Under the pieces are notes generated by a model. The model saw nothing but the letters and a program-made list of their open reading frames with translations. It had not been told where the DNA came from and ran no database searches. This document shows, piece after piece, positions 168 through 33,978 of a stretch of 42,001 nucleotides of DNA. Each line of letters starts with the position of its first letter. Within the stretch, counting starts at the first letter, position 1. The position numbers were made by a program, and so were the translations under genes. Source of the stretch: Nanobdellota archaeon. GTDB taxonomy: Archaea > Nanobdellota > Nanobdellia > Woesearchaeales > GW2011-AR9. The stretch is taken from assembly GCA_038045005.1 (NCBI GenBank), contig JBBSYZ010000008.1, positions 1 to 42,001 on the forward strand, given 5' to 3'.

Positions 168-340
168 GCCACCGTCGCATAATCCGGTATTGCGCAGGTC
201 TTGAATAAACTTTTTAAAAAAAAGTTTAATCAAAAACCTCTATGAAGAGAACCTGTTCCTTCGGGAATTCTCGGTTCAAACGAGAAACTGCGTTTCTCAC
301 CCAGAAAAACGCAGTTTTTCTGAATGTCCGAGCGGTGGCG
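168..340 (+). tRNA. tRNA-Ser(TGA) with two introns (206-249 at 37/38; 281-326 at 59/60)
   Basis: Acceptor GCCACCG/CGGTGGC+G; anticodon stem CAGGT/ACCTG with loop CT-TGA-A; long variable arm; T arm CTCGG-TTCAAA..T-CCGAG; TTCA/TGAA BHB helix. Confidence 0.92.
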
Positions 341-483
341 CTTTTTTTATTGTTTGTTTTGGATCTAAAACACCGCAGCTCTGCTGGGGTTGGATTTTTT
401 ATTCCTAATCCAGTATCCTTTCGGTAAAGAGCAAGAACATCCTAACAAACTTTAAAAAAGAATCCATATTAGAATTCTAAAAT

Positions 484-586
484 ACGGCTGTGGTCTAGTG
501 GTTTGATCCGAGCTTCCCAAGCTTGTGGCCCGGGTTCGATTAGCTGAATGCTATTAATGCACAGCTCGATTTTCCCGGCAGCCGTA
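484..586 (+). tRNA. tRNA-Gly(CCC) with T-loop intron (about 541-572)
   Basis: Acceptor ACGGCTG/CAGCCGT+A; anticodon arm CGAGC-TTCCCAA-GCTTG; T stem CCGGG/CCCGG interrupted by a 32-nt hairpin. Confidence 0.88.
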
Positions 587-594
587 CTTTGCCA

Positions 595-659
595 GCGCAA
601 GAAAACTGACAAAAATCAGTTTTCTGCGCAGAAATGTGGTATCTTCCACATTTCTTGCG
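595..659. mobile_element. Bulged twin-hairpin micro-insertion with GCG duplication
   Basis: Two overlapping hairpins; removing 598-659 restores GCCAGCGTCGCAT, identical to 706-718. Confidence 0.7.
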
Positions 660-705
660 TCGCATACACAAAATGAGTACGCATTTTGGTCGCGACTTGG
701 CTCAC

Positions 706-926
706 GCCAGCGTCGCATAATCCGGTAGTGCGGCAGTCTCGAAAGCAACTTTTGGAAAGTTGCATCAAAATGGGGGCATAAAGCCCACCAAGAGTTAACT
801 GCTCCCTCTGGGATTCCCGGTTCAAACAAATGGTTACGCGCATTTGATACGCAAGAGCGGGTTAGGCATAAAGCCTAACGCACTGCGGATTAATGCGTAA
901 TCATTCTGAAAGTCCGGGCGCTGGCG
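706..926 (+). tRNA. tRNA-Ser(CGA) with two introns (744-796 at 37/38; 827-912 at 59/60)
   Basis: Acceptor GCCAGCG/CGCTGGC+G; stem GCAGT/ACTGC with CT-CGA-A; variable arm TCCCTCTGGGA; T arm CCCGG-TTCAAA..T-CCGGG. Confidence 0.92.
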
Positions 927-1003
927 CTTTTTTTTTACAACCAGCTTTTATCACCACATATTTTAAATACCATGCATTTTTCTTCATTGTGGAGGTGTCT
1001 ACT

Positions 1004-1411
1004 ATGACATATTATGAAACTTTGTTTCCGGTGATATTTTTAGCCGGAAGGATTATAGTCGGAGGATATTATCTTTTGAGCGCCGGCCATCATTTTCTCA
1101 AATTAGATATGCTGACGCAATATGCAAAATCTAAGAAAGTGCCGCTGGCAAGAGAGGCAGTACTGTTTTCCGGATTGCTTTTGCTGCTGGGAGGAGTTAG
1201 TGTCCTGCTGGGAGTCTATCCGCAAGCAGGAGTTCTGCTGTTAGTTCTATTCTTGACCGCGGCATCATTCAAGATGCACGATTTTTGGGCGGTGCCGGAA
1301 GAGCAGAAGATGGCTGAGAAGATGAATTTCCTGAAGAATATGGCTCTTCTTGGATCGGCATTGATGTGGCTGGCGATACAGACCCCTTGGGCTTTTAGCC
1401 TAACGATTTAA
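1004..1411 (+). CDS. DoxX family membrane protein
   Basis: SD GGAGGTG before ATG 1004; four hydrophobic segments; H-D-F-W and 'NFLKNMALLG' DoxX/SURF4 motif. Confidence 0.85.
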   Translation: MTYYETLFPVIFLAGRIIVGGYYLLSAGHHFLKLDMLTQYAKSKKVPLAREAVLFSGLLLLLGGVSVLLGVYPQAGVLLLVLFLTAASFKMHDFWAVPEEQKMAEKMNFLKNMALLGSALMWLAIQTPWAFSLTI

Positions 1412-1473
1412 TTTTATTTTTAATTTTATTTTTTAAAATTTATTAGGCCATAAATACAAGCAAAAAATGAAAA

Positions 1474-1660
1474 ACCCAGTCGCCCCAAGGGGCGGGGTAT
1501 CTGTAACAATATACCCTAAATATTTGGGCGCCTTGGTTTTTCGTCCAGAAAACATATATGAATGATTTATTTCATCCCAATCACCGCAAGCACACAATGA
1601 AGCAAAGACTTCATTGGTGCGCCAGTAAAATCGTTGTTTTACTGTGCGCGGAGGGGTATG
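1474..1660. repeat. REP-like hairpin cluster (hairpin + GGGGTAT); one copy interrupted by a twin-hairpin insertion at 1590-1649
   Basis: ACCCAGT-CGCCCC-AA-GGGGCG-GGGTAT (1474-1500); TCCCAATCACCGCAA[insert]GCGGAGGGGTATG (1575-1660); lies between convergent genes. Confidence 0.65.
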
Positions 1661-1673
1661 TTTTCTGAAATCA

Positions 1674-2738
1674 TCACAGCTTCAATCCTTCTTCCGCCAA
1701 TAATTGTCTCTGCCATTTCCTCAGGCAATCGGTTTTGTTAGCAGAAGCGATCTCGCTCATCTGTTCCTTGTTGATGATCAAATGCCCTTTGATGCCAATC
1801 TTGTCGGCTGCTTTCAGCTGCAGTTCATTAAGCTGTTCAAACAGGTCTTTCTGCTGCTGGGAATACCTCTTTTTTTCTTTGATTTGGATATCTACCGGCT
1901 CTCTATTCCCTTCCTCCACAGCAGCATAAAACTGAGCAGCTTCCTTCCGCACAATAGGATGAACTCCCCGCAGATTTTCCCATTGCGGCGGATGGAGAGA
2001 ACATTCACGCAGATGATTGTTGTTGATTATGAAATGCGACGGCCGATCAACTCTCTTAGCCAATTTCTGGCGGAGAAGAAACAATTTTTTGAAAATGCCC
2101 AGCTGTCCGGGAGAAAAAACTTTTACGCCGCGGACATCGATGAAAGCCTGTTCGTTATAACTAAAATCTGCCCGCTCCAGCACTGCAAATTCTTCTTCGG
2201 CCCAGGACCAGCGCCCTTTCTGCTGCAGTTCCTTTTTGAAAATGTCGCGAAGCTGGATCAAATATTGAGTGTCTTTTGCCGCATAAGAAAGCATTTTAGT
2301 ATCCAGCGGCCTTTTGGTCCAGTCTGCCATCTGGTATTTCCGCTCTTTTTCAATGCTAAAATATTCTCTCAGCAGATCGCCGAGGCCCAGCTGCTTTTTT
2401 CCCAGCAATAAAGCGGCCAGCTGCGTGTCAAAAACATTTCTGGGCCGGCATGAAAACTGTTCGTGAAGAATCCGGAAATCGAAACTCACGTCATGGAATA
2501 TTTTCTGAATGTTTTTATTTTCAAATATATCTGCCAGGGGCTGGATTTCCTTCATGACCAATACATCAATTATCCAGATTTTATCCAGACTGGAGATTTG
2601 AATCAAAGTGATGTAAGCTCCGTAATGATGGAGATTATTTTCGCATTCCAGATCCACTGCCAGATCAGCAGCGGAATTCCATTCCCGCACCGCTTCGTAG
2701 AGCGCATCTTTGGTATCTACATAAGTAAATGAAACCAT
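1674..2738 (-). CDS. rnd: Ribonuclease D-like 3'-5' exonuclease with HRDC domain
   Basis: DEDDy motifs DLECE, FHDVSFD, YAAKD; DWTKRPL motif; C-terminal HRDC-like 'RQKLAKRVDRPSHFII'. Confidence 0.88.
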   Translation of the reverse strand: MVSFTYVDTKDALYEAVREWNSAADLAVDLECENNLHHYGAYITLIQISSLDKIWIIDVLVMKEIQPLADIFENKNIQKIFHDVSFDFRILHEQFSCRPRNVFDTQLAALLLGKKQLGLGDLLREYFSIEKERKYQMADWTKRPLDTKMLSYAAKDTQYLIQLRDIFKKELQQKGRWSWAEEEFAVLERADFSYNEQAFIDVRGVKVFSPGQLGIFKKLFLLRQKLAKRVDRPSHFIINNNHLRECSLHPPQWENLRGVHPIVRKEAAQFYAAVEEGNREPVDIQIKEKKRYSQQQKDLFEQLNELQLKAADKIGIKGHLIINKEQMSEIASANKTDCLRKWQRQLLAEEGLKL

Positions 2739-2951
2739 AGCCCCAATATCTGATAAATATATATAAATATATGGCGGGTTTTTATTAAAATTAAGAGTAA
2801 TATCGTCAGGATAGGTTTCAGGTGGGTGGGGATGAAACTCAATGAAGGGGAATTGAAACCTGCCGGTGAATTCATCCGGAAGCAGATTTGGAATAATTGA
2901 TGGGAAGAAGGAATTTCAAAAATAAGCAGTGAAAAGTAAGGAATAAAAAAG

Positions 2952-3111
2952 TGCCCCGGCCGGGATTCGAACCCGGGTCACCGCCTATCCTTGGTTTCCC
3001 ACGAAAGGGCAGTATGATAGTTTGTCCCCAGACAAACTTTACATATCTGTTTGTCTTGGTCCGGATAGTGTCAATAAACCAGCAAAGATTTATCGTCTAC
3101 ACCACCGGGGC
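2952..3111 (-). tRNA. tRNA-Glu(TTC) with three introns (3066-3096 at 15/16; 3022-3060 in the D loop after GG; 2987-3001 at 37/38)
   Basis: Spliced sequence GCCCCGGTGGTGTAG-TCCGG-ACTATCATACTGCCCTTTCG-AGGCGGTGACCCGGGTTCGAATCCCGGCCGGGGCA folds as a canonical archaeal tRNA-Glu; each intron has a BHB-like junction. Confidence 0.88.
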
Positions 3112-3210
3112 GTTAATTGGCAAAACATTACCTGCTTTAAAAAGATTTCTGAGACTACTCGCTTAATCACAACAAAAACCTTATAAAACGAAATCCAAAT
3201 TCACCCCTGC

Positions 3211-3576
3211 ATGAAAGATAAGGTTATTTTACGATTGACTGAAAATGTTACTGTTAAAGGCAACAACGGACAGGAGGCTAAAGTGGTAGCTAGAATCGAT
3301 ACCGGAGCTACTTCTTCCTCTATCGATGAATCACTAGCAGGAGAACTGCAGCTAGGCCCGGTCCTGCGTTCTAAAGTGATTAAATCTGCGTCGGGAATCC
3401 GTAAACGGCCAGCGGTAAAAGTTACAGTGATCTTAAAGGACATCTGCATCGAAGAAGAATTTACTCTGGCTGACCGAAGCCACATGACCTACAAAATGCT
3501 CATAGGCCAAAATGTGCTGAATAAAGGCAATTTCCTTATCGATCCGTCTAAAGATGCAGAACCGAGGGATAAATGA
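3211..3576 (+). CDS. RimK-associated retropepsin-like (putative ATP-dependent zinc protease family) protein
   Basis: ARIDTGATSSS aspartic-protease motif, 'FTLADRSHMTYKMLIG'; overlaps rimK start (ATGA). Confidence 0.85.
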   Translation: MKDKVILRLTENVTVKGNNGQEAKVVARIDTGATSSSIDESLAGELQLGPVLRSKVIKSASGIRKRPAVKVTVILKDICIEEEFTLADRSHMTYKMLIGQNVLNKGNFLIDPSKDAEPRDK

Positions 3577-4652
3577 AAGCCGCGCTCATCTCGCTGGGAA
3601 GTAAAAGTTCAGAGATGTCCGGGGAAGCCATGAAGAAATATTTCCAGCAGGTAGACTTGCTTTACCTGACCAAGATTGAAGTGCGCCTGGGAAAAGAAAG
3701 CGGCATCTTCTATGAAAATAAGCCGCTTGATAATTACGACTGCGTCTATGTAAAAGGCTCATTCAGATATGCTAATCTGCTCTGTTCCATCGCTTCCATG
3801 CTGGAAGGAAAAGTTCCGTATATGCCCCTTCCTGCCAATGCCTTCACTACTGTGCATAATAAACTGCTAACGCATCTGGTGCTTCAGCAACACAATATCC
3901 CCATGCCCCGAACTTATATTTCTTCCACCACGGAAACTGCAAAAGAACTGCTTAAGCGGGTCAATTATCCAATAGTTATGAAGTTTCCTGAAGGAACACA
4001 GGGAAAAGGGGTTATGTTTGCCGATTCAATAAGTTCTGCTTCTTCGTTATTGGATGCCTTAGGAGTTCTTAAGCAGCCGTTTATCATTCAGGAATATATC
4101 GATACCGGAGGCACAGATATCAGAGCTCTGGTGGTCGGAGATAAAGTTATAGCCGCCATGAGAAGGAAAGCGCAGACTGAAGAAAAAAGAGCAAACATCC
4201 ATGCCGGAGGAAAGGGACAACCGGTGCAATTAAGTCCTGCGATAATCAATCTGGCGCTGGCTACCTCCAAAGCATTAAAAACAGATGTTTGCGGAGTCGA
4301 CATCCTTGAAGGACCGACCGGGCCGCTGGTTATCGAAGCTAATATTTCTCCCGGACTGCAGGGGCTGGGTGAAGTAAGCACGCTCGATCTTCCGGATCAA
4401 ATCGCTAAATTTTTATTTCGCAAAACGGAAGAGATACTCAACGCAAGCAGGAGAACTGCCTCTGACACAGCAATAAAAGAACTTACTGAAAAAGGTCCAG
4501 AAAGCCCGCAGGAAATTATCACGCGGCTGCAGTTTCGTGGAGAACGTATACTTTTGCCGGAATGGATCACTAGAATCTGCAAATTCCAAGAGCTGAAAGA
4601 ATTTTCCGTAAAAACCAAGAAAGGAAAAGTAGATATTGAAGAGATGAAGTGA
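3573..4652 (+). CDS. rimK: RimK family alpha-L-glutamate ligase (ATP-grasp) with C-terminal extension
   Basis: GTQGKGV, IIQEYI, DIRALVVG, RANIHAGG, GVDIL, EANISPG motifs. Confidence 0.88.
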   Translation: MKAALISLGSKSSEMSGEAMKKYFQQVDLLYLTKIEVRLGKESGIFYENKPLDNYDCVYVKGSFRYANLLCSIASMLEGKVPYMPLPANAFTTVHNKLLTHLVLQQHNIPMPRTYISSTTETAKELLKRVNYPIVMKFPEGTQGKGVMFADSISSASSLLDALGVLKQPFIIQEYIDTGGTDIRALVVGDKVIAAMRRKAQTEEKRANIHAGGKGQPVQLSPAIINLALATSKALKTDVCGVDILEGPTGPLVIEANISPGLQGLGEVSTLDLPDQIAKFLFRKTEEILNASRRTASDTAIKELTEKGPESPQEIITRLQFRGERILLPEWITRICKFQELKEFSVKTKKGKVDIEEMK

Positions 4653-4722
4653 GGGAGTTGCGGCCTTATAATCCAAAAAACACTATTTATTCCTTGATAT
4701 CATAATTCTTAAGAATAATAAT

Positions 4723-4989
4723 TTATTTCCTTTTTCTCACTGACTTGGTAGCTGATTTTAATGGTGTTTCCCACCTGCGCTTCGGCTTGAACCAGGCCAG
4801 ATAGATGATCGGCAGCAATCCAAAAGTGTTCAGCAGCAGCATGGCAATGAACCAGCCCTTTTGCTTATTCTCTGCGGCATGCCATAACGCAAACCCTTTC
4901 CACGCCAATTCCCAAACTGAAAGCAAAATCAGAATCACTAAAAAACTCTCCGACTGTTGGTACAGACTATACATCACGGTTTGATACAT
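4723..4989 (-). CDS. Small membrane protein (DUF5652-like)
   Basis: 'WELAWKGFALWHAA..QKGWFIAMLLLNTFGLLPIIYL' pattern. Confidence 0.75.
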   Translation of the reverse strand: MYQTVMYSLYQQSESFLVILILLSVWELAWKGFALWHAAENKQKGWFIAMLLLNTFGLLPIIYLAWFKPKRRWETPLKSATKSVRKRK

Positions 4990-5125
4990 AAAAAGGAAAA
5001 CTCATCATAGATATTTAAATATTTGTATTTTTGAATCTGCCAGCTCATCTGTGAGCAACTATACAAAACCAAAGAAAAAACAAAATAAAACAAAAAAATA
5101 ACTGAGAAAAGAAACCTAAAAAAAT

Positions 5126-5338
5126 TCACTTCTTCTTTTTCTCTGACATAGCGCAATGGCCGCACATAGGCTTAACGAGCTTTATAACTCCTGCTACAAC
5201 TAATAAGCCGCCAAGAACAAGCCGCCAGTCAAGTGAAGACCACCAAAGAGCCCAAACTAAGACTAAAACCCCTAGTACTAGTTTCTTAACTCCATGGCAA
5301 CGCACACACATACCATCCGAACAACATCCGCAACCCAT
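5126..5338 (-). CDS. Small two-TM protein with Cys clusters
   Basis: SD GAGGTGA before ATG 5338; CGCC/CVRC at N-terminus, CGHC at C-terminus. Confidence 0.7.
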   Translation of the reverse strand: MGCGCCSDGMCVRCHGVKKLVLGVLVLVWALWWSSLDWRLVLGGLLVVAGVIKLVKPMCGHCAMSEKKKK

Positions 5339-5392
5339 TGTATTCACCTCATAAAAGTTGATACAACCAGAATAGTAAAAGAATATAAAAGG

Positions 5393-6265
5393 CTATCTCT
5401 TTTTCTTGCTTTTCTCGATTCCGCGTATTTTTTCTAAATCATCCAGAATGTCCGAAGCGATAAACACATACCCTTTCTTTTTCTTCAGCAGCTGGTCGCC
5501 GACAAATCCGTTGATGTATGAAGCAGCAACCGCGCTTTTGAACAGATCTTTGGATTTGGCTAAGAAACCTGCCGCTAACCCCGCTAAGATGTCTCCGGTG
5601 CCTCCTTTGGTCATGCCTTGATTACCGGTCCGATTAAAAGCAATTTTATTGACTGAGATAATTAAATCTGTAGGTCCTTTCACCAAGAGAACATTATTAT
5701 TCTGCAGAAAATAACGCAGATTGCCTTGCAAAATTTCCGCTTTCTCCTTGGCGTTTGCTTCCCGCAGTTTAGGCAGTAAAAACTCCTTATTGCTGTGCAC
5801 CAGCATCAACTCTAATTCAGTTTCGTGCGGAGTCACGATGCTGTTATTGAAATCTTTAAAAGAAAGGGATTTTAAAGCGTCGGCGTCAATTACTTTCAAT
5901 TTCTGTGACTTATGCACAAAATACTGGCAGAACTTTTCTGCTTTTCGAGTAACTCCGTTGCCTATCAGGACCGCATCAAACTTGTCTGCGTATTTCACCA
6001 TCTCTTTGGCGTTCTTGATCGTGAAAGTGCTCCCTTTAACTTTGTAAGTCATCAAATCTGGCGTATATTGATGTACTGCCCAAGCTACTTTCTCCGGCGC
6101 AGCTACTGTCGCCATGTCGCAGCCGGAGCGGAGAGCCGCCAAACCAGCCAGAACCACTGCACCTACATATTCCTCTGAACCGCCGATTATCAGCGCGTGG
6201 CCATTCTCTCCTTTATGAGAAGTCTTTTTCCTCTCCATTAACTTTTTAATTTGATTTATGTTCAT
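5393..6265 (-). CDS. nnrD: ADP/ATP-dependent NAD(P)H-hydrate dehydratase
   Basis: HKGENG, IGGSEEYVGA, DADAL, TPHETE, GGTGDILAG motifs. Confidence 0.92.
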   Translation of the reverse strand: MNINQIKKLMERKKTSHKGENGHALIIGGSEEYVGAVVLAGLAALRSGCDMATVAAPEKVAWAVHQYTPDLMTYKVKGSTFTIKNAKEMVKYADKFDAVLIGNGVTRKAEKFCQYFVHKSQKLKVIDADALKSLSFKDFNNSIVTPHETELELMLVHSNKEFLLPKLREANAKEKAEILQGNLRYFLQNNNVLLVKGPTDLIISVNKIAFNRTGNQGMTKGGTGDILAGLAAGFLAKSKDLFKSAVAASYINGFVGDQLLKKKKGYVFIASDILDDLEKIRGIEKSKKKR

Positions 6266-6443
6266 GGGATACGAAAATTAAGAAAATATTTATTTTTTGG
6301 TTTAAATAAGTTTGTAGTAATTGGGGGGTAGATAAAAGCAGGTTATAAGCTTCGTTTAAAAAGAATTTAAAAGCCTAGCTAAAAAGAGAACCGCTTCCAA
6401 AACTACAATAAACCTTTTAAAGAAGAATACTTCCCCCCTTCCC

Positions 6444-6643
6444 GGCCCCATAGCTCAGCCTGGTTCAGAGCGCTGGTCTTATACGACCATTAATGGCACA
6501 ATTTAACCAAACCATTAATTCCGCTTGGAAAGCCAGAGGTCCTGGGTTCAAAACAAATGTCACGCCATTTGCGAGGCGGAGAGATTTCGCAGGTGCTCAA
6601 TCCCAAGTAATCGTGACAATTGGTGAAAGTCCCAGTGGGGCCA
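6444..6643 (+). tRNA. tRNA-Ile(TAT) with two introns (6484-6530 at 37/38; 6553-6629 at 59/60)
   Basis: Acceptor GGCCCCA/TGGGGCC+A; D arm GCTC/GAGC; stem CTGGT/GCCAG with CT-TAT-A; T arm CTGGG/CCCAG; anticodon call assumes the canonical intron position (BHB helix is weak). Confidence 0.75.
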
Positions 6644-6732
6644 CTTTTTTCATAAAACAATTACCTCCCACGACCATATCTTCTTTTATCATTTTTTTCA
6701 AAAAGCATTATCGACGGCATTATCAAAAAACA

Positions 6733-7320
6733 CTAAGAACACTGTTCATTTACGCTGTCCAAAGTCATGGTAAAAGAAATTCCTTTGATTACAGGATGAG
6801 TGATGATGCCGCTAGTTTCTTTCTCCTGCAAGGTAATCACTTGCTCGCCGATGATTTTGCCGGTGGTCTTTTTAATGACGGTAATAACCACGAGCGGATC
6901 TTCGCCCTTGCAGTAAGGCATAGTCTTCATCAGTCTCCATTCCAACGCTCCGGCATAAGTATAACTTCCCCTGCCCATGGTTAAATCATACACTTCTTTA
7001 TCGCTGGTAAATATCTTTGCGCCGGAGATGCTGCATTTTTCTTCGCAATCAGTTTCAAACAGGCTGCTTAACGTCTTGCAGGTTCCTTCGATGCATAAAA
7101 AATCCTGCTGACAATCGCTGTTATACTCGCAGGCAGGCGGCGTTTCCGGGGTTTCCGATTCTTCCGAAGGCTCTGCTGCAGAGATATTTTCAATATCCGC
7201 GATCGTTCCTGCACTATCTTCTGAAGTTACAGGAACAGCTGATTTATTGGGGCCGCAACCGACCAGGATAATTGAAATAAACAACCATATACAGATTAAA
7301 AAAATAGATCTTATCTTCAT
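6733..7320 (-). CDS. Putative lipoprotein with Cys-rich segment
   Basis: Lipobox-like LVGC after a hydrophobic signal; acidic linker; C-x4-DC-x5-C-x4-C motif; SD GAGGT. Confidence 0.75.
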   Translation of the reverse strand: MKIRSIFLICIWLFISIILVGCGPNKSAVPVTSEDSAGTIADIENISAAEPSEESETPETPPACEYNSDCQQDFLCIEGTCKTLSSLFETDCEEKCSISGAKIFTSDKEVYDLTMGRGSYTYAGALEWRLMKTMPYCKGEDPLVVITVIKKTTGKIIGEQVITLQEKETSGIITHPVIKGISFTMTLDSVNEQCS

Positions 7321-7530
7321 TTTACCTCTCGTGCAAAAAATGGAGAAGGATTATATAAACTCTTCTGCCAGCAAATTTCCGGGCATATAAACTATTTCGC
7401 AGCCAAAACTTTCGAGACAGGTTTTACAACCATTCGATAAACCAGCTGGATTTAACAAGCTCAACCTCTTCTTTCGAATCTGGCTGCTGTAACAATTAAA
7501 TCATTGAAATTTAAATGCTTATCTATACTC

Positions 7531-7695
7531 GGCTAATATGAAACCCTATGCTTCGCAGGTCACTAACAGCCTCGCTAAACCGATGTTTTACGTCGTTGGT
7601 CGGCGTTCCCCGTAAGGGACAAGCCCCTTGCCGACGTGAATGTGATTTTTGAACACGCTCGGAAAGGGTTAGTGACCGAGGGTTTCATATTAGCC
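7531..7695. mobile_element. MITE, 165 bp, 17-bp perfect TIR, 9-bp target-site duplication
   Basis: GGCTAATATGAAACCCT (7531-7547) / AGGGTTTCATATTAGCC (7679-7695), flanked by TCTATACTC at 7522-7530 and 7696-7704; no ORF. Confidence 0.92.
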
Positions 7696-7704
7696 TCTAT
7701 ACTC

Positions 7705-7846: not shown

Positions 7847-8032
7847 TGCGGTAGCGGGGACTTCCGCGGCATTTCCTGCCTTTCGAACCCCGGTCACAGC
7901 CTCATTACAGACTTTTACAATCTTTCGTCAAGGGGGGACTAAGGAGTAAACTCCGAAGGTCGCCCGCTTTTTACGAGATTTTTTGCAAAAATCTCTGGCA
8001 AGGCCGTATACTAACCACTATACTACTACCGC
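7847..8032 (-). tRNA. tRNA-Gly(GCC) with two introns (7903-7995 at 37/38, 93 nt; 7861-7881 at 59/60)
   Basis: Acceptor GCGGTAG/CTACCGC+A; stem CGGCC/GGCTG with TT-GCC-A; BHB helix TTGC/GTAA; T arm CGGGG/CCCCG. Confidence 0.9.
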
Positions 8033-8665: not shown

Positions 8666-8822
8666 CCCCCCTTAGTTTAGCGGCTAGAACACTCGGCTGT
8701 AGAAACTCTTTAGAATTGTCACCGATGACTGAAATGAAAAAGAGTCAGCCAGTAGTCACCGAGGAATCCCCGGTTCGAAAAAACAACAAACCAATTGTTG
8801 TCTGAAAATCCGGGAGGGGGGA
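8666..8822 (+). tRNA. tRNA-Tyr(GTA) with two introns (8703-8757 at 37/38; 8780-8808 at 59/60)
   Basis: C1-G72 acceptor CCCCCCT/AGGGGGG+A; stem CTCGG/CCGAG with CT-GTA-G; short variable loop typical of archaeal tRNA-Tyr. Confidence 0.92.
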
Positions 8823-8978: not shown

Positions 8979-9123
8979 GCCCTGGTAGTGTAGTGGCCTA
9001 GCATGGGGCCCTGTCGTAATCATTTGGGGGTATGGCCTAAATGATTTGGAGAAAGGCCCCGACCCGGGTTCGAATGTGGTTGGGAGAGGTTTCACAATCA
9101 GTAAGAAAATCCCGGCCAGGGCG
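8979..9123 (+). tRNA. tRNA-Asp(GTC) with two introns (9017-9053; 9075-9109)
   Basis: Acceptor GCCCTGG/CCAGGGC+G; stem GGGCC/GGCCC with CT-GTC-G; T arm CCGGG/CCCGG. Confidence 0.92.
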
Positions 9124-9129
9124 TTCCTT

Positions 9130-9266
9130 GGGCCGGTAGCTCAGCTTGGTTGAGCGCTTGACTTTTAAGCAAGCGAACAAAGAGATCAAGAGGTCAGGGG
9201 TTCAAATGGTTTCCGAAACTCGGCAAACTGCCTGGATACGGAAACTTGAATGTCCCCTCCGGCCCG
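9130..9266 (+). tRNA. tRNA-Lys(TTT) with two introns (9168-9184; 9207-9252)
   Basis: Acceptor GGGCCGG/CCGGCCC+G; stem CTTGA/TCAAG with CT-TTT-A; BHB helices CTTT/AAAG and TTCA/TGAA. Confidence 0.92.
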
Positions 9267-19952: not shown

Positions 19953-23210
<3,258 letters not shown>

Positions 23211-27277: not shown

Positions 27278-27907
27278 TTACTTTCCCCATTTTTCTTTCC
27301 CAACCATCTTCCTGCCAATCTTATGCGCCAGATGCAACGGCTCCGGCAATTTATGCGGATGCACAATCGTTTTTGGAATTATGTCCTGCACCGTATCAAA
27401 AGAAACGTGATGCCCCGGAGAGACGTAAATAGGATTGGAATGCTCTCGGGTCTTGATTTCAAACCCCATAACTTCTCCATCAACTAATACTTTCCCTTCC
27501 TGAAGATTTCCGAAAGTAACTTTATCCTGCACACCTATGGTCGACATATTTAATGCCAAGCCCAGATGAGATGCTACCCCCATATTATGCTGATGCAGGA
27601 CACCGGCACCTTTCACCAGCAATATATCCGGCTCTTCGTCCAACTGATTGAATGCTTCGATTATCGCCGGCATTTCCCGGTAAGCTGTAAAGCCCGGCCG
27701 GTAAGGAAGCGGATTATCTAACACGTATGTTTTCTGTTCCTTAACTTTGAAAGAAGGGAACTCACAGACTACTATGCAGGCCAATAATTTATTTCCCATC
27801 TGCAGGCATACTGCGCCGCCCAAGGTCTTGATTTCCTTGAAACTATCGTTAAGCACAATCTTCGGCGCAAGTTTCAGCTGTTCCCTTCGAAGTTCAAATG
27901 TATCCAT
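27278..27907 (-). CDS. nfi: Endonuclease V homolog (catalytic aspartates substituted)
   Basis: PYRPGFTAYRE wedge, GVASHLG, PIYVSPGH, KLPEPLHLAH. Confidence 0.88.
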   Translation of the reverse strand: MDTFELRREQLKLAPKIVLNDSFKEIKTLGGAVCLQMGNKLLACIVVCEFPSFKVKEQKTYVLDNPLPYRPGFTAYREMPAIIEAFNQLDEEPDILLVKGAGVLHQHNMGVASHLGLALNMSTIGVQDKVTFGNLQEGKVLVDGEVMGFEIKTREHSNPIYVSPGHHVSFDTVQDIIPKTIVHPHKLPEPLHLAHKIGRKMVGKEKWGK

Positions 27908-27919
27908 TTTGCATTTACC

Positions 27920-28846
27920 TTATTTTCGCGCTTCCTGCTCGCTAACGCTCGCACCACGCACCCGACGAGCACGGCCGTCGTAGTAGATAGGGTCGCTGTA
28001 GCAATCGAGGAGGAACCTACCTGCATAGCCACTGAGCCAGACCGCCCTTTCTGGCATTTCTGCACGAGTGTAATATTTCTCGCTTTTAGTGGGAGCAGTC
28101 CAGCTAAAAATATCGTTTCTGCTCTTACCGCCGATAAATTCTAATGTTTGAATTATTATTTCAGCATCATCTTCGGCATCTAAAATCGTTTGCAGATAAG
28201 TCAAACCGGAACCGCTGTCGGCAACTTCTTCAATTAGAGTTCCTTTATAAACCGGAACTTCGATAACTCTTTCTTTAGTCAGTTCAGGTTTTTTACATTT
28301 ATAGTGCTGCACCACTCTGGCATCCAAACTGTTTGCAGAGTAAAATAATCTGGTGTTGGCGATCAGCCCGCCCATACCATCTTTCCAGGTAAAATCTTCC
28401 CGCAGGCCGTTTAAGTATGATTGAGCTTTAGCCTGCCCTTCAGCAGTTCCCGATTCGCGCATTTTCTTTATGATCTTAAAATTAGCATACAAGTCGCCCA
28501 TGGAAGCCATGACTCTGCCGTCTTTGATTTTATTCCAGTATTTGATCCATTCATCCGCAGTCTTTTTCTTTCCATTTTCCGCCGATTTCTCGTCAAGAGT
28601 TAATTCGTGCTCTGAGGTTGATTCCGAACGGCAAACCCGTTCCAGAATATCAATCAGGCTTTCTCCGCTGCTTCTAAATATTCCCAATAAACTTTTTTGC
28701 TTCATACGCTGCCGGAGAGCTTGGTCCATCTCTTCTCCCTTTCCGCAGTTTATAGCGTAAGCTAACGCAGTCTGTTCGTCAGAAATATTTAATTGTTCCC
28801 GGTTAATCTTAATGATTTTCTCAGCTTCTTCACGATGGTAAGTCAT
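27920..28846 (-). CDS. Hypothetical protein with DGR-variable-region-like C-terminus
   Basis: C-terminal 'RAVWL..RFLLD..DGRARRVR' encoded by a run of NNC/NNT codons; overlaps upstream gene (ATGA). Confidence 0.7.
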   Translation of the reverse strand: MTYHREEAEKIIKINREQLNISDEQTALAYAINCGKGEEMDQALRQRMKQKSLLGIFRSSGESLIDILERVCRSESTSEHELTLDEKSAENGKKKTADEWIKYWNKIKDGRVMASMGDLYANFKIIKKMRESGTAEGQAKAQSYLNGLREDFTWKDGMGGLIANTRLFYSANSLDARVVQHYKCKKPELTKERVIEVPVYKGTLIEEVADSGSGLTYLQTILDAEDDAEIIIQTLEFIGGKSRNDIFSWTAPTKSEKYYTRAEMPERAVWLSGYAGRFLLDCYSDPIYYDGRARRVRGASVSEQEARK

Positions 28847-29778
28847 TTTTCATCCCCGCTTTTTTCTCCGTCTTTTGAGAAATATATTTTCGGCCCGAAA
28901 ACAACATCATTTTTTATGTCAAATCCATAAAGTAGTTTTTCAGAATCGTCGGTGATCCTTACAATCTGATAGTAATCATAAGAACGCCCTGCAAAATTTG
29001 CGGCTTCTTCCATACTTTGGAAATTTGCTTCAGTCTGTTCGGATTCGTTAATGCTTATTATACCGTATTTTCCATCCTCCCGGTACGCATAAACAATATG
29101 CGATATAACTGCCGGATCTTTAGAATCTAAATAAATGCCCGCGCCGTTATTAAGCAGGTAATGTGAAAATGCCAGCACGTCATCACAATCGCCTTTCTTA
29201 GTGCGATAAAAATGGACTGCGGTAGTAAACACATCGCAACTGCCCTCTCCGTTTTGGCTCCCCGCGCATAAATTACCGCTAAATTGCTTTTCATCAGATA
29301 AATATTTAGTCTTATTAACTATGAAGTTCTGTACAGATTTGCGTTTTCCGAACAATGAATCCAGTCTTGAACCTTCTCTGGAATTAAGCGGAGGATAAAC
29401 CTTATTCGGCCCGGGATGGTAAGTTACATTTACAGAACCGGGATTTAATCTTATTTCGGCTGCAGTTCTGATTGCAGATTCTGAAATTTTTGCTGGAACT
29501 TCTTGCTTGAAGAGTTCCAACTTTCTTCCTAAATATGCGCCCCAGCCAGAACCGGCTAAAACAGCTAAACTGCAAGATATTAAAAAAAATGGGAGGGGGA
29601 TGCGACATTTATGGCTGCCGGTGTCTTCTTCCGATTTTGATAATTTACTTACTTCTATCAGCTTGGTGCGGTTTTCAACCAAATATCTTCCGTCAGCAGT
29701 TCTGTAAACAGTGCATTCTTCTTTTACCAGACGTTCTAATTGACCGTCTTTTTGGACGCCATCTTTTTGAGAAACCAT
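28843..29778 (-). CDS. Membrane-anchored transglutaminase-like (papain-fold) protein
   Basis: One TM near residues 62-84; KKGDCDD catalytic-Cys motif and downstream SHIVYAY His strand. Confidence 0.65.
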   Translation of the reverse strand: MVSQKDGVQKDGQLERLVKEECTVYRTADGRYLVENRTKLIEVSKLSKSEEDTGSHKCRIPLPFFLISCSLAVLAGSGWGAYLGRKLELFKQEVPAKISESAIRTAAEIRLNPGSVNVTYHPGPNKVYPPLNSREGSRLDSLFGKRKSVQNFIVNKTKYLSDEKQFSGNLCAGSQNGEGSCDVFTTAVHFYRTKKGDCDDVLAFSHYLLNNGAGIYLDSKDPAVISHIVYAYREDGKYGIISINESEQTEANFQSMEEAANFAGRSYDYYQIVRITDDSEKLLYGFDIKNDVVFGPKIYFSKDGEKSGDEK

Positions 29779-29804
29779 TTTTATAAATTGTCCATAGTTT
29801 TATT

Positions 29805-30356
29805 TCAATCTCTCCTTATTCCTCTTACCCGGCAATAAACTGAATAACTGGGCAGTATTTCGTCGCTTATCCTGATTTCAGCAAGCTTTTCGCGCGTATC
29901 AATAACAATTTCTCCCCGTTCCAGCGCATAATTTTCTGGAAGTATTTCTGTATAATCATCAATATGGTTAAGATCCCTTTTACCGCAGTATCTTCGCTTA
30001 ATTTTTTTTCGGTTAAACCCAAGCTCTGCAAGAACATCGTCAATCTGCGAGTCTATGCGCATAGCTTCATCATAAACCCTGGCTCTTTCCCACTGGCACA
30101 GACAGCGCATCCCCGATAGCAGCACATTATAATCTGCCGGATTGCCGTCAATTTTTCCGTCAATTTCAGGGAACAGCAAATCGTGCGCATTCGCGCCTTC
30201 GAAAGGCAGCTTGGCCAGCAGATAGCCGGTATTAGTCTGCTGATTATATAATCCCAGCCCCAAAGCAGCAGAAAGAGATATGGTTGACCCTATCAAAGGC
30301 TCTTCAATCTTCGTCAACGGCCAGCCGATATCCACCCTAATGATATTCCAGTTCAT
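29805..30356 (-). CDS. Hypothetical protein, weak CheD-like pattern
   Basis: 'TISLSAALGLGLYNQQTNTGYLL' resembles CheD 'TxGLGSCVGIALYD..GGLAH' but lacks the Cys and His. Confidence 0.55.
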   Translation of the reverse strand: MNWNIIRVDIGWPLTKIEEPLIGSTISLSAALGLGLYNQQTNTGYLLAKLPFEGANAHDLLFPEIDGKIDGNPADYNVLLSGMRCLCQWERARVYDEAMRIDSQIDDVLAELGFNRKKIKRRYCGKRDLNHIDDYTEILPENYALERGEIVIDTREKLAEIRISDEILPSYSVYCRVRGIRRD

Positions 30357-30404
30357 TCCTGTTCACCAGTTTTGAATATTGTTTAAAACAAAAAAATAAA
30401 AAAT

Positions 30405-30674
30405 TTAGTATCTTATATTGATGATACGCAGAGGTCGGTAAGCAAACCATCCTTGGTTTAGTTCTTGGCCTACTGCTTTATCTGAAGCTGCGTCAACAGT
30501 TTCTACAGGTTTACGCCTATACTTATCAAACCAAGCACTAAACCCTATGCTTCGAAGCAATTCCGCTTCTAATTGGGCTTCTTGGTTCGGTTTAAAGCTG
30601 ATAGCAATCTTATTGTAGCTTGCAGCGGTCTGTTCTAAATCTAATGGTATTTGTGTCATTTTAGGTAACCTCAT
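30405..30674 (-). CDS. Hypothetical protein
   Basis: ATG-initiated 89-aa ORF heading a co-directional gene run; TTTATAAA upstream. Confidence 0.55.
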   Translation of the reverse strand: MRLPKMTQIPLDLEQTAASYNKIAISFKPNQEAQLEAELLRSIGFSAWFDKYRRKPVETVDAASDKAVGQELNQGWFAYRPLRIINIRY

Positions 30675-30785
30675 TGGTACTCTTTTTTTAACTTAAAATG
30701 AGCTCAGAGTTTATAAATCTTACCACGATTTACTACGGTACAGTAGATAATAAGGTTTAAAATCGCAGCAGTTTACTTAGTGGAC

Positions 30786-31148
30786 ATGACTTCAGAAAAC
30801 TGGTGGTGGGGGCGTTCTGCCTCTGTTGATTTGCACGGCTGCGATCCTCTGTTGGTAAAGAATCCTGCAGCTATCCGGCGTTTCATACGCACCTTGATAA
30901 CAGAATTGAAAATGAAACGCGTCGGCCCGGCGATAATCAAGCGTTTCGGCCACAAAAAACTGCGCGGTTATTCCCTGATGCAGTTCATCGAGACCAGCAC
31001 CATCACGGCTCACTTCGATGAGCAGGGCAACCGGGCGTTTATCGACATCTTCAGCTGCAAGACTTACGACACTAAGAAAGTAGCGCTGTTCTGCAAGAAA
31101 TTCTTTAAGGCTAAGGATTACGTGCTGTATGTGGAAGAGAGAAGATAA
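30786..31148 (+). CDS. speD: S-adenosylmethionine decarboxylase proenzyme
   Basis: DLHGC, GYSLMQFIET|S self-cleavage site, H, DIFSCK motif. Confidence 0.9.
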   Translation: MTSENWWWGRSASVDLHGCDPLLVKNPAAIRRFIRTLITELKMKRVGPAIIKRFGHKKLRGYSLMQFIETSTITAHFDEQGNRAFIDIFSCKTYDTKKVALFCKKFFKAKDYVLYVEERR

Positions 31149-31223
31149 AACTAAAGATGATACGTAAGCATATAGAAAGATATTTATAATCTATTTCTTC
31201 TATAAAGAAGAAAGAGGCGCAAG

Positions 31224-31697
31224 ATGGTTTTTCGCGAAGAAGACAAACATTTCTTATCTTCATTATACATAGCTGTTGCCATTATCTTGACCTGGAAAGG
31301 GCTGTGGACAGGCATTTATGAAGTACCTTTCATTGGCAGCTTGCAATGTAAAATTTTAGGTCCATACTGCGGATCGTTCGTATTCCTCTTCATAGGTTTT
31401 GCCATGCTTATGTTCTCGGGAGCAATTTTCAAAGAATTTGATCCTCTGGGGGGGATCCAAAAAGCAGTAAATAAAACTTTGCATTCTATTTATACCCACC
31501 AGGATAAAAAAAATTTTCAATTTAAATATTATGATAAATCACAAAAAAAGAATGTTGCCATTCCGGCTGCTTGGGTAAAAAAAATAGAAAAAGACGCTTT
31601 AATAGTTGTGCTCCCGCACCAGAAAAAGGAGATATTCATCCCCATACACAGAGTAACAGAAGTTCTTTACAAAGGAAAGAGTTACTGGAGACTATAA
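31224..31697 (+). CDS. Two-TM membrane protein with C-terminal MJ1316/DUF504-like domain (paralog 1)
   Basis: Two hydrophobic helices (W.G.W), then 'FKYYD...FIPIHRVTEVLYKGKSYW'. Confidence 0.7.
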   Translation: MVFREEDKHFLSSLYIAVAIILTWKGLWTGIYEVPFIGSLQCKILGPYCGSFVFLFIGFAMLMFSGAIFKEFDPLGGIQKAVNKTLHSIYTHQDKKNFQFKYYDKSQKKNVAIPAAWVKKIEKDALIVVLPHQKKEIFIPIHRVTEVLYKGKSYWRL

Positions 31698-31698
31698 T

Positions 31699-32133
31699 AT
31701 GATGGCTTGGGAAGATATAAAAAAATATTTTTGGTACCTCTTTGGCATCATAGGGGTGGTATATTTCTGGGCGGGTGTCTGGGATGGAGTTGGAAGCATC
31801 GGACCGCTTCAAAATCCGCTTTATAGTTTTATTGCCGGCGTAGTTTTACTCAGTCTCTCCCGTGTGATCCTTAAAGATGCCAATCCCTTATGGGGCTTAG
31901 AAAAACCGGTCAAATTAGAGGCCAAGAAAGTACACCGCCATCCGCAGAAGCAGGAGTTTCATTTCAAGTATGAAGACCATATGAAAAACAAAGAGCTTCT
32001 GTTTCATGCACAGAAATTAAAAAGGATTGAAAAAGAATTCTTAGTCTTCCTGGACCACGGAAAAGAAGTCTTCATCCCTTTGCACCGAGTAACCCAAATC
32101 ATGCATAAAGGAAAGACGCATTGGAAGGCATAA
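31699..32133 (+). CDS. Two-TM membrane protein with C-terminal MJ1316/DUF504-like domain (paralog 2)
   Basis: Same architecture: WAGVW, 'FKYED...FIPLHRVTQIMHKGKTHW'. Confidence 0.7.
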   Translation: MMAWEDIKKYFWYLFGIIGVVYFWAGVWDGVGSIGPLQNPLYSFIAGVVLLSLSRVILKDANPLWGLEKPVKLEAKKVHRHPQKQEFHFKYEDHMKNKELLFHAQKLKRIEKEFLVFLDHGKEVFIPLHRVTQIMHKGKTHWKA

Positions 32134-32134
32134 G

Positions 32135-32602
32135 ATGCAATACTTAAATAAGGAAGCGATTACCCCGTTGATGATCGCGTTCCTGCTCATCTCCTTTGCA
32201 GTTGCGGTCGGAGTGGTGATCATGAATTTAGGTAGCGCAGAAGTGGAAGATAAAGCGGAATGCGCCATCGAGATCGGGCTGCGATTTTCTGAAATAAGCG
32301 GCAAAGAGCAGATATGTTATGATGCTGATAAAAAGATATTCGCATTTGCGGTAGAAAACGGAGTCAATATCAATGTAGAAGGCCTGGTGGTGAACATCAT
32401 CGGGACGGAAAAAGCAGAAACCTTTGAATTGAACGAAGCGAAGATGGGGAAAGCGGCGGTATATTTAGGAAGAGTGCCGTTTGATACCGCTTCATCCGGA
32501 GAGATCAGGCAGGTAAAAATATCCCCAAAGATCATTCCTTACGATCAAGAAGAAGTCTGCATCGAGCAGGCCATTTTAGTAGAAAGCGTTAAAGCCTGCT
32601 GA
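32135..32602 (+). CDS. Archaeal type IV pilin-like protein
   Basis: Class III signal-like N-terminus NKEA|ITPL + hydrophobic helix; two-Cys globular domain ending in Cys. Confidence 0.75.
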   Translation: MQYLNKEAITPLMIAFLLISFAVAVGVVIMNLGSAEVEDKAECAIEIGLRFSEISGKEQICYDADKKIFAFAVENGVNINVEGLVVNIIGTEKAETFELNEAKMGKAAVYLGRVPFDTASSGEIRQVKISPKIIPYDQEEVCIEQAILVESVKAC

Positions 32603-32641
32603 AATATATATCGGTTGATGTTTTGCCCCATATGATTTTAG

Positions 32642-33430
32642 GTGGAAAAAATGGAAATTGAAATTAATCTAACCAAATCAATTGAAGAGAACGCAGGAAA
32701 ATATTTTGAATCCGCCAAGAAAGCCAAGAGGAAAGCAGAAGGAGCCAAAAAAGCCCTGGCTGAGACTAAAAAGAAACTAGAATTGCTGTTGAAACAGGAA
32801 TCAAAATTTCTGGAAGAAACTGCTGTCAAGCAGGCCAACCGGCAAAAGAAGCGCGAATGGTATGAAAAATTTCACTGGTTCTTCTCCTCAGAAGGGTTCT
32901 TGTGCGTCGGCGGAAAAGATGCGACCTCTAACGAGATCATAATCAAGAAACATCTGGAAAAAAATGACTTGGTTTTGCACACGGATATGGCCGGTTCTCC
33001 ATTTTTTGTCATCAAGAACGGGCAGGAAGCCGGAGAACAGACCATCAAAGAGACAGCGCAGGCCGTAGCCGTGTATTCCCGCGCCTGGAAATTGTGGCAC
33101 ACTTCTGCGGACGTATTTTATGTCAAGCCCGAACAGGTGACTAAGGAAGCCAGACCGGGAGAATATCTGGCCAAAGGAAGTTTCATGATTTACGGCAAGA
33201 CCAATTATCTTCATCCCTCTCTGGAATATGCCATCGGGCTGGCCGACGGAGAGATCATCGGCGGACCAAAAACCGCAGTAGAAAAAAACACCAAATCTTT
33301 TGTGGTAGTAATCCCGGGAAAAGAAAATAAGGGAAGTTTAGCCAAAAAGATCAAACATAAACTTAAGGGGGGAGATTTGGATGATATTATCAAGTTTCTT
33401 CCTGCTGGCGGCGGGGAATTGAAAAGATAA
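32642..33430 (+). CDS. NFACT RNA-binding domain (DUF814) protein, short RqcH/NEMF-related form
   Basis: ENAGKYF, WYEKFHWF, GGKDATSNE, H.D..GSP, GEYL.KGSFMIYG. Confidence 0.9.
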   Translation: MEKMEIEINLTKSIEENAGKYFESAKKAKRKAEGAKKALAETKKKLELLLKQESKFLEETAVKQANRQKKREWYEKFHWFFSSEGFLCVGGKDATSNEIIIKKHLEKNDLVLHTDMAGSPFFVIKNGQEAGEQTIKETAQAVAVYSRAWKLWHTSADVFYVKPEQVTKEARPGEYLAKGSFMIYGKTNYLHPSLEYAIGLADGEIIGGPKTAVEKNTKSFVVVIPGKENKGSLAKKIKHKLKGGDLDDIIKFLPAGGGELKR

Positions 33431-33786
33431 TGGGATCCGAACTAAAACTGTGGGAAATTGTTATCCGTTACGATGCTCACCATATCGATGGTATCACCCC
33501 TCTGAAAAAATCATACCAAGTCATCGGAATAGATAAAGAAGAAGCGCTGGAAAAAGCCCGTTCTCTGTTTTCTGAGCAGGAATGGAAAGGAAAAGAACTT
33601 GTAGAAAATGCCGGGTACATAAGCAGAGAAGTTACGCTTGACAACTATAGAGAAAGTATCCGAGAATATCGTAAAAAAATCCCTGCGCCTGAAATGAATG
33701 GCCCTGATGCACGGAAATTCAAATTAACACCCAGAATATCAGATGATGGCAGGAGCATTGAGTTTATTGTCAATGAGAAGCCATAA
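33430..33786 (+). CDS. Hypothetical protein
   Basis: Translationally coupled (TAATG) to the NFACT gene. Confidence 0.7.
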   Translation: MGSELKLWEIVIRYDAHHIDGITPLKKSYQVIGIDKEEALEKARSLFSEQEWKGKELVENAGYISREVTLDNYRESIREYRKKIPAPEMNGPDARKFKLTPRISDDGRSIEFIVNEKP

Positions 33787-33854
33787 AAGCGCGGAGAGTA
33801 AGCCATTCTAATACATCAACGTTTTTAAAGAAAAGGCATTTTTAACTATCTTAT

Positions 33855-33978
33855 GCCCCCGTCGTCTAGCCTGGATAGGACGCGAGCTTGCGGTCAGGAA
33901 CGACAAAAAGCTTGAAGCCGGAGTTCAAAATCAGCGGCTGCTGAAATCAGATGCTGGATGAAATTCTCCGCGGGGGCG
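33855..33978 (+). tRNA. tRNA-Arg(GCG) with two introns (33894-33908; 33930-33964)
   Basis: Acceptor GCCCCCG/CGGGGGC+G; D loop AGCCTGGATA; stem CGAGC/GCTTG with TT-GCG-G; T arm CGGAG/CTCCG. Confidence 0.9.

Follow-up and report, generated by a model that had tools for sequence, protein, structure and literature searches.

Interrupted tRNA genes of a Woesearchaeota-type archaeon and their introns at T-loop position 59/60

The multi-intron tRNA genes of the Thermoproteales, for which Sugahara 2008 and Fujishima 2010 are reportedly the primary papers, have a counterpart in the DNA considered here, a stretch of 42,001 nt ("the window") in which nine of ten tRNA genes carry an intron at position 59/60 of the T-loop. 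The window is an entire contig (C8) of an assembly of 497 kb in 41 contigs that is 72% complete (G000, "the home genome"). Judged by its sequence, the host is a DPANN archaeon of the Woesearchaeota type (Nanoarchaeia in GTDB), and the DNA runs that contain the stretch are groundwater metagenomes. In the passages available from published work, position 59/60 stands on a list of non-canonical archaeal intron sites (PMC4090602), and the Thermoproteales are described as having multi-intron tRNA genes with related introns in different tRNAs, for which transposition was suggested (PMC4090602, PMC4033280). The genes of the present lineage share with them non-canonical bulge-helix-bulge (BHB) introns that include 59/60, the presence of several introns per gene, and related introns across tRNAs. 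Unlike the Thermoproteales, however, the hosts are mesophilic DPANN archaea with genomes of about 1 Mb, 59/60 is the dominant site (15 of 25 genes in the home genome), and a single alpha-type gene for the splicing endonuclease EndA is found, whereas the thermoproteal enzyme is an (alpha-beta)2 form with a crenarchaeal loop.

Within DPANN, the sections available of Kaneta et al. (2018, PMC5829648) give the EndA of Nanoarchaeum equitans as (alpha-beta)2 and that of ARMAN-2 as epsilon2, and report alpha4-type EndAs in several DPANN lineages together with a higher number of disrupted tRNA genes in DPANN. In the same sections, a DPANN alpha4 EndA with an 'L3' loop is linked to more disrupted tRNA genes, and incomplete tRNA sets are said to need manual curation; the panel contained one Woesearchaeota genome (Kaneta et al., 2018). 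For Woesearchaeota, the passages of the literature searched contain no description of 59/60 as a hot spot, of how widely the site is used or of introns that move; the supplements of PMC5829648 may list positions for one such genome. The present genes resemble those of other DPANN archaea (N. equitans, ARMAN-2) in being disrupted. Unlike the N. equitans alpha subunit, the EndA encoded here has no six-residue insertion.

In organisms of the Methanocaldococcus jannaschii type, tRNA introns are few and canonical. The EndA of the home genome aligns over its full length with the M. jannaschii enzyme (1a79), and the 59/60 motif copies the BHB geometry of 37/38; unlike the M. jannaschii enzyme, the EndA here carries a Lys-rich extension some 30 residues long, and the introns that it has to process number about 42, at six or more positions. 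For Asgard archaea, passages of a 2026 preprint report that most tRNA genes are interrupted, with introns concentrated at 37/38 and in the T-arm, that the T-arm inserts form a canonical BHB, that introns were gained repeatedly, and that annotation software misses many of them (bioRxiv 10.64898/2026.10.13.758758). The archaeon studied here belongs to a different superphylum, and DPANN go unmentioned in those preprint passages. The kind of intron is already known; what is noteworthy here is that all 25 tRNA genes found are interrupted, that one site is dominant, and that clear signs of intron mobility are combined with a minimal EndA. How archaeal tRNA introns are gained is an open question, and this lineage offers a natural experiment on it, with dozens of close genomes, one structurally defined site that in one and the same tRNA is occupied, vacant or reoccupied, an intron family in four different tRNAs, and a minimal splicing enzyme.

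Interrupted tRNA genes and the geometry of the 59/60 site

Standard searches miss nearly all tRNA genes of the window. ARAGORN with default settings and Rfam at gathering thresholds both reported no tRNA in it; Rfam at E <= 10 yielded a single partial tRNA match (20 bits, 6444-6550), and ARAGORN in intron mode found one of the ten genes, mis-typed as Phe. The genes were recovered with a custom scan for a 7-bp acceptor stem and a T arm in which a loop insert is allowed; BHB-bounded inserts were then removed in silico and the products typed by ARAGORN. Because the scan requires a TTCRA T-loop, G53:C61 and U8, it is blind to other architectures, such as that of a Trp gene with an insert at 53/54, which surfaced only by a separate search. 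As a control for chance, the same scan returned 15 tRNAs with a T-loop insert and 8 with a normal T-loop from the real genome, against 0-2 and 0, respectively, from six shuffled genomes. Removal of the inserts restores standard cloverleafs, and nine of the ten window genes were typed by ARAGORN. The tenth, a tRNA-Glu that was ambiguous at first, was parsed by means of 74-nt intron-less tRNA-Glu(TTC) orthologues in three relatives (G010, G008 and G020).

In total, the ten genes contain 20 introns: 59/60 and 37/38 account for nine each, and the D-loop of tRNA-Glu for the remaining two. The 59/60 inserts (46, 32, 86, 77, 21, 29, 35, 46 and 35 nt) are placed after TTCRAN, and the 37/38 intron is present in every gene except tRNA-Gly(CCC). 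A preliminary description of the window had arrived at the same picture, with all ten genes interrupted by about 20 introns, nine T-loop 59/60 insertions of 21-86 nt after TTC(A/G)A(A/T) and a 37/38 intron in nine of the ten, and its expectation that standard tRNA scans would miss such genes is borne out by the searches above. It had also raised the matter of uninterrupted copies of these isoacceptors elsewhere; no second copy of any of the ten was found in the home assembly.

Across the home genome, 25 tRNA genes were found and all 25 are interrupted, 15 by a 59/60 intron and 18 by a 37/38 intron. The total is about 42 introns, the other sites being the D-loop, positions near 9/10 and near 29/30, 31/32 and 53/54; the parses outside the window are provisional. 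The Rfam tRNA model finds only five genes in this genome, all of 92-116 nt.

The pairing of the TTCR loop with an intron end of the form (T/G/A)GAA-NN, in a BHB closed by the T stem, had been proposed in the preliminary description for most of the insertions, and a BHB geometry is found at all nine 59/60 sites of the window. The outer helix is the 5-bp T stem in every case. The central helix joins T54-T55-C56-R57 to an intron tetramer situated 2 nt before the intron end, with four of four pairs at seven sites and three of four at the other two. Seven of the nine introns have 3' ends that read NGAA-NN, the tetramer being mostly YGAA, and the cleavage sites are predicted in the two bulges, between A58-N59 and the first intron nucleotide (i1) and between NN and N60. 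Position 59/60 is in this respect the T-arm counterpart of the canonical 37/38 site, since the break likewise comes after nucleotide six of a loop of 7 nt on a stem of 5 bp. The inner helix adjoins the 5' bulge at five of the nine sites; in Ser(CGA) and Gly(GCC) it is, by eye, offset by one nucleotide or a mismatch.

Minimum free energy (MFE) folds of the nine T-arm segments have the T stem closed and the intron hairpin formed in all nine. The MFE structure is the complete BHB in three of them (Ser(TGA), Ile and Arg) and contains three of the four central pairs in two more (Gly(GCC) and Asp). The BHB register is the same throughout an alignment of 46 sequences; it also holds for 71 distinct introns, drawn from 28 genomes, and for another 16 of 16 loci. 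By their predicted geometry, the window inserts are BHB-type archaeal tRNA introns.

Distribution and turnover of 59/60 introns across the lineage

With the Rfam tRNA model RF00005, a genome of about 1 Mb yields 4-22 tRNAs within the genus (15 species besides that of the home genome). Outside the genus but within the family the range is 7-29, and outside the family but within the order it is 9-41. In the closed 1.3-Mb genome G040, RF00005 finds 13 tRNAs only, and the same T-loop inserts are present. With standard finders at 0 of 10 in the window and at 4-22 per genome in the genus, the tRNA counts of such DPANN bins are badly underestimated, which affects their quality scores as well as metabolic and translational inferences drawn for them.

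Orthologous loci were fetched from 40 relatives with the window tRNA stretches as DNA queries, a sample that is biased to orthologues of the window genes. T-loop inserts of the same geometry were present in 34 of 56 tRNAs from the genus, 13 of 38 from other genera of the family and 21 of 40 from other families of the order, and 27 of 37 sampled genomes (G000 included) have at least one. An independent check was made with a covariance model of the T arm and BHB (R1), built from 46 sequences, which in the home genome picked up nine of the known 15 sites, and no match listed was false. At E <= 0.01, the model matched at least 97 of the 151 phylum genomes sampled, all of them 80% complete or better, a lower bound because only 36 candidates per genome were scored; matches were obtained in 15 of 16 family genomes and in 14 genomes from other orders of the class. 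Sixteen R1 matches were fetched, ten of them from other orders; in every case the sequence is that of a tRNA gene interrupted at 59/60, with all pairs of the central helix formed. Going by these matches, 59/60 introns are routine across the lineage, in the genus, the family, the order and other orders of the class. The preliminary description had named as its own counter-case that the pattern might already be routine in the lineage, and this is what was found; the home genome is not special in this respect.

The occupants of the site have different histories. None of the 12 genus members sampled (G000 among them) lacks the 59/60 intron of tRNA-Asp, and those of the 11 relatives are 74-95% identical to that of G000; its sequence is kept across the genus, and it is therefore old and vertically inherited. 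The tRNA-Lys 59/60 intron occurs in five of seven genus members as three unrelated sequence types, being absent in G004 and G009 and of unrelated sequence in G011 and G015. Seven of nine genus members have one in tRNA-Tyr, ranging in length between 27 and 141 nt and falling into several unrelated types, and three of seven have one in tRNA-Gly(GCC). tRNA-Glu has no 59/60 intron in the home genome and has one in G011 and G015, and its second D-loop intron is missing from G002, whose Asp-Lys stretch matches that of the window at 96% identity.

Related introns are also found in different tRNAs. A 59/60 family of about 70 nt is shared by Tyr (G009), Gly(GCC) (G014), Glu (G011) and Ile(GAT) (G000), with pairwise identities of 70-82% against a background median of 56%. 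In the home genome, the 86-nt 59/60 introns of Ser(CGA) and of Ser(GCT) on contig C15 are 100% identical, the 59/60 introns of Cys and Thr(CGT) share 89% over 27 nt, and Ser(CGA) and Thr(CGT) have 37/38 introns with 81% identity over 47 nt. Introns thus appear to move or to be copied between tRNA genes, with the structural site kept. When the introns of the window are compared with one another, the best match is of 11 nt only; the statement of the preliminary description that the intron bodies are mutually unrelated thus stands inside the window and fails at the level of the genome and genus, where families are shared.

Together, these sequence comparisons support continuing gain, loss, replacement and movement of 59/60 introns atop an old lineage-wide state. 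They might also be read as a recent burst of 59/60 gains specific to this genome, given the second D-loop intron of Glu, which is present here but not in the 96%-identical G002, and the Lys, Tyr and Gly(GCC) 59/60 introns, which differ or are missing in congeners. Such a burst is improbable, however, because the site is occupied across the genus, the family, the order and other orders of the class, the Asp intron sequence is conserved in 12 of 12 genus members sampled, and low RF00005 counts are general in the lineage. The active or recent intron gain envisaged in the preliminary description accordingly keeps part of its ground, in the presence and absence of introns, their replacement and the four-tRNA family, and loses part of it to the lineage-wide state and the age of the Asp intron. 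The further suggestion made there, that the introns might mask att sites used by integrases, is purely speculative.

Four DNA runs were compared with the window and yielded population variants only, two of which concern the same genes. tRNA-Gly(GCC) has 14 nt in place of its 93-nt 37/38 intron (7903-7995) in contigs from two other groundwater runs (X9 and X10). Another contig, in X7, resembles the Asp gene without its T-loop intron; the likeness is 85% and the match is short on one side, so the contig probably belongs to another organism.

Splicing enzymes, proposed mechanism and alternative readings

The home genome encodes an EndA of 202 aa on contig C13, with an N-terminal and a catalytic domain (PF01974, E 1.9e-30, and PF02778), and RtcB on contig C10 (E 1.3e-174). 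The best PDB matches of the EndA are the alpha unit of Methanopyrus kandleri, the alpha4 enzyme of M. jannaschii (full length) and the alpha subunit of N. equitans. The full-length alignment with 1a79 (E 5e-36) has, as printed, gaps of one residue only, and the Lys-rich extension of about 30 residues is N-terminal. The six residues by which N. equitans alpha is longer between the catalytic Tyr and His have no equivalent in this protein; the place checked may not be L3. PF01974 has one match in G000 and exactly one in 34 of 40 relatives, the complete G040 included; two matches are present in G003, G010 and G014 (in G003 and G010 the extras are short fragments, two or more of them at contig ends), and none in G002 and G038. 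Neither a second (beta) EndA subunit nor a three-unit fusion was found in G000 by PF01974 and homology search, and because the query detects the N. equitans beta subunit at 1.3e-12, a beta subunit should have been visible. The single alpha-type gene, which is also single in those 34 relatives and in the closed genome among them, points to a putative homotetramer.

Broad-specificity EndA types are the (alpha-beta)2 and epsilon2 forms and alpha4 enzymes with a specific loop (L1/L2 N-terminal, L3 C-terminal). The need for a relaxed-specificity EndA that had been presumed at the outset is not apparent, and neither is such an enzyme, since the protein is short and alpha-type, has no second subunit and lacks an insert of the N. 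equitans type at the place checked. Most 59/60 sites are near the strict BHB, so a broad-specificity EndA may not be needed for those.

In all likelihood, the loci are working tRNA genes with one to three BHB introns each, in an old lineage-wide state with continuing gain, loss, replacement and movement of introns. Transcription would start from a TATA-like box about 25-35 nt upstream, and an EndA alpha homotetramer would cut both bulges of every BHB. RtcB would then join the exons and may circularise the introns, and the CCA-adding enzyme encoded in the window would add the 3' end, a step that is called for because none of the ten genes encodes CCA in the downstream sequence read. The preference for 59/60, a genuine hot spot, could reflect portability. 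The exon half of the motif at this site, TTCR, is near-invariant among tRNAs, and an intron that ends in YGAA-NN would be spliceable in any tRNA without co-adaptation; a portable end of this kind would explain both the frequent filling of 59/60 and the occurrence of one family in different tRNAs. The exon half at 37/38 takes in loop nucleotides 32-35, and these vary between tRNAs. Ser(CGA) and Thr(CGT), which have a related 37/38 intron, also have identical loop nucleotides 32-35, and this fits the portability idea.

Several points weigh against the view of these loci as spliced, working genes. The runs that match the stretch comprise 20 of DNA and none of RNA, and splicing is therefore inferred. 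By a strict adjacency measure, four of the nine sites (Ser(CGA), Gly(GCC), Tyr and Asp) are without an inner helix flush to the 5' bulge; such motifs would have to be called slightly relaxed, but at the place checked the EndA has none of the known broad-specificity inserts. The central helix, A/U-rich and weak, is open in the MFE structures of Ser(CGA), Tyr and Lys (three of nine), and Gly(CCC) pairs slightly differently. The rationale given for the hot spot is likewise an inference of ours. Lastly, the 72%-complete assembly yielded no tRNA for Ala, Val, Pro, Asn or Met and no initiator tRNA, so that the census is incomplete; the genes for the five amino acids may belong to the 28% that is missing or have disruptions beyond the reach of the scan, and split or permuted genes may be among them.

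The incompleteness of the assembly, together with the host dependence of DPANN archaea, would also suit an account in which the loci are disrupted pseudogenes or relics and the functional tRNAs are encoded elsewhere or derived from the host. This is more improbable still than a recent burst: there are no second copies in the assembly, the exons are conserved while the introns vary, and the BHB geometry is maintained. The complete 1.3-Mb genome G040 likewise has 13 standard tRNA matches and the same inserts, and in the window TATA-like boxes lie upstream of most of the tRNA genes and T-rich tracts after many. Least probable of all is that the T-loop inserts are retained or are removed by a nuclease other than EndA/RtcB, for although the EndA has no broad-specificity insertions at the place checked and some sites deviate slightly from the strict motif, the register of a 4-bp helix and 3-nt bulges that EndA measures is conserved in the 71 introns from 28 genomes and in the 16 of 16 further loci, and a T-loop with 21-186 extra nucleotides is unable to form the canonical T-loop fold, as established tRNA structure has it.

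More tentatively, and with the balance somewhat against it, the working-gene reading could be extended: the 59/60 introns may be small selfish elements that exploit TTCR as a universal half of the splicing motif and spread between tRNA genes, perhaps also between genomes, throughout Nanoarchaeia. Any tRNA gene would then be permissive, the cost to the host would be low, and a plain homotetrameric EndA would be enough. A 5' module consisting of a hairpin and AAUCAAAA, present in 37/38 and 59/60 introns of different orders, would on this extension be part of the machinery or the recognition signal of the element.

The module itself lies at the 5' end of introns (e.g. 206-233 in the window) and has the form of a hairpin, AACTTTTT...AAAAAGTT, followed by AATCAAAA. 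Several genera have it in 37/38 introns, namely those of Ser(TGA), Thr(CGT) and Glu, and two genomes from other orders have it in 59/60 introns; besides 206-233, the loci are L120, L123, L132, L150, L153, L156, L176 and L178. The pattern has five matches in the home genome, two of them in tRNA introns, and 0-3 in shuffled genomes. The AACTTTTT...AAAAAG module resembles the TATA-like boxes upstream of the genes; this is a resemblance only, and no promoter is claimed.

Individual genes and neighbouring sequences

The first three tRNA genes of the window lie on the plus strand. tRNA-Ser(TGA) (168-339) has a 37/38 intron of 44 nt (206-249) and a 59/60 intron of 46 nt (281-326), and the MFE fold of 270-334 is a full BHB with a z-score of -5.6. 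tRNA-Gly(CCC) (484-585) has the 59/60 intron as its sole intron (541-572, 32 nt), with three of four pairs in the central helix. tRNA-Ser(CGA) (706-925) is interrupted by introns of 53 nt at 37/38 (744-796) and 86 nt at 59/60 (827-912). On the minus strand, tRNA-Glu(TTC) (2953-3111) has a normal T-loop and three introns, the exons being defined by the intron-less orthologues: two are in the D-loop, at 3066-3096 (31 nt) and about 3020-3058 (39 nt, boundaries ambiguous by 2 nt), and one is at 37/38 (2987-3001, 15 nt).

tRNA-Ile(TAT) (6444-6642, plus strand) has a 47-nt 37/38 intron (6484-6530) and a 77-nt 59/60 intron (6553-6629), with an MFE fold that is a full BHB. In tRNA-Gly(GCC) (7848-8032, minus strand), the introns are of 93 nt at 37/38 (7903-7995) and 21 nt at 59/60 (7861-7881). 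The remaining genes are on the plus strand. tRNA-Tyr(GTA) (8666-8821) carries introns of 55 nt (37/38, 8703-8757) and 29 nt (59/60, 8780-8808), and tRNA-Asp(GTC) (8979-9122) introns of 37 nt (37/38, 9017-9053) and 35 nt (59/60, 9075-9109). tRNA-Lys(TTT) (9130-9265) begins 7 nt 3' of tRNA-Asp and has introns of 17 nt (37/38, 9168-9184) and 46 nt (59/60, 9207-9252). The last gene, tRNA-Arg(GCG) (33855-33977), has a 15-nt 37/38 intron (33894-33908) and a 35-nt 59/60 intron (33930-33964), and its MFE fold is again a full BHB.

The tRNA-Ile at 6444-6642 has the anticodon UAU. A UAU-anticodon tRNA-Ile that reads AUA, in place of the modified CAU tRNA, is known in Nanoarchaeota and Korarchaeota.

Copies of the first 13-14 nt of the two tRNA-Ser genes lie upstream of them, 61 nt before Ser(TGA) (107-119) and 115 nt before Ser(CGA) (591-597 with 652-658). 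By eye, the sole TATA-like box of the Ser(TGA) upstream stretch (about 73-85) precedes the upstream copy; the copy before Ser(CGA) is itself interrupted by a palindromic repeat, and the two spacers look alike. A third Ser(TGA) intron, linking the upstream copy of nucleotides 1-13 to the gene, was considered and rejected, as an in-register BHB was formed in 0 of 14 registers.

The palindromic repeat lies at 595-667, between tRNA-Gly(CCC) and tRNA-Ser(CGA), and is an element of 65-70 nt with two hairpins and the look of a miniature inverted-repeat transposable element. By BLAST, about ten more full or partial copies are present on seven other contigs, and every species of the genus has many, often on both strands. 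The 141-nt T-loop intron of Tyr in G006 seems, by eye, to have been expanded by a similar two-hairpin block. A derivation of the introns from this repeat was rejected, since a BLAST comparison of all introns with the genome gave no link, and a likeness of the Ser(TGA) T-loop intron to it, noted by eye, was unsupported.

Elsewhere in the home genome, two tRNA genes on contig C13 are unusual. tRNA-Trp(CCA) (C13:35336-35470) has, besides a 37/38 intron, 29 nt inserted at 53/54, where the T stem meets T54, which means that other T-arm positions are also used. A class II tRNA at C13:17695-17809 combines a Ser-like D-arm and G73 with the anticodon loop of tRNA-Leu(UAA), and a normal Leu(UAA) is encoded on C25. 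This odd Ser-like tRNA(UAA) was found in this genus only, where 11 of 15 species have it, some of them in several copies (up to six matches), each copy with its own TATA-like box. A reassignment of UUA was rejected, because 16 of 18 TTA codons of RpoA' fall in columns with a Leu majority and none in Ser columns (99 homologues).

Besides its tRNA genes, the window encodes RNA polymerase subunits, GyrB with an intein, SMC, an RNase D-like exonuclease and the CCA-adding enzyme (by Pfam). The gene for the last, with a tRNA nucleotidyltransferase domain (PF09249, E 1.4e-38), lies at 36884-38143 on the minus strand. In the DNA gyrase B gene (19956-23210), an Intein_splicing domain is placed between the GyrB and Toprim domains. 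The intergenic stretch 35530-35800 contains several alike hairpins that end in GGGGTAT(G/A), one of which is followed by AATCAAAA; no Rfam match was obtained there. Downstream of tRNA-Gly(GCC), about 170 nt of intergenic sequence on the minus strand (7525-7695), with short direct repeat flanks and no match to an Rfam family, are predicted to form a long closed fold (MFE -72 kcal/mol, z -6.1, equalled by 0 of 200 shuffles), which makes them a candidate structured RNA.

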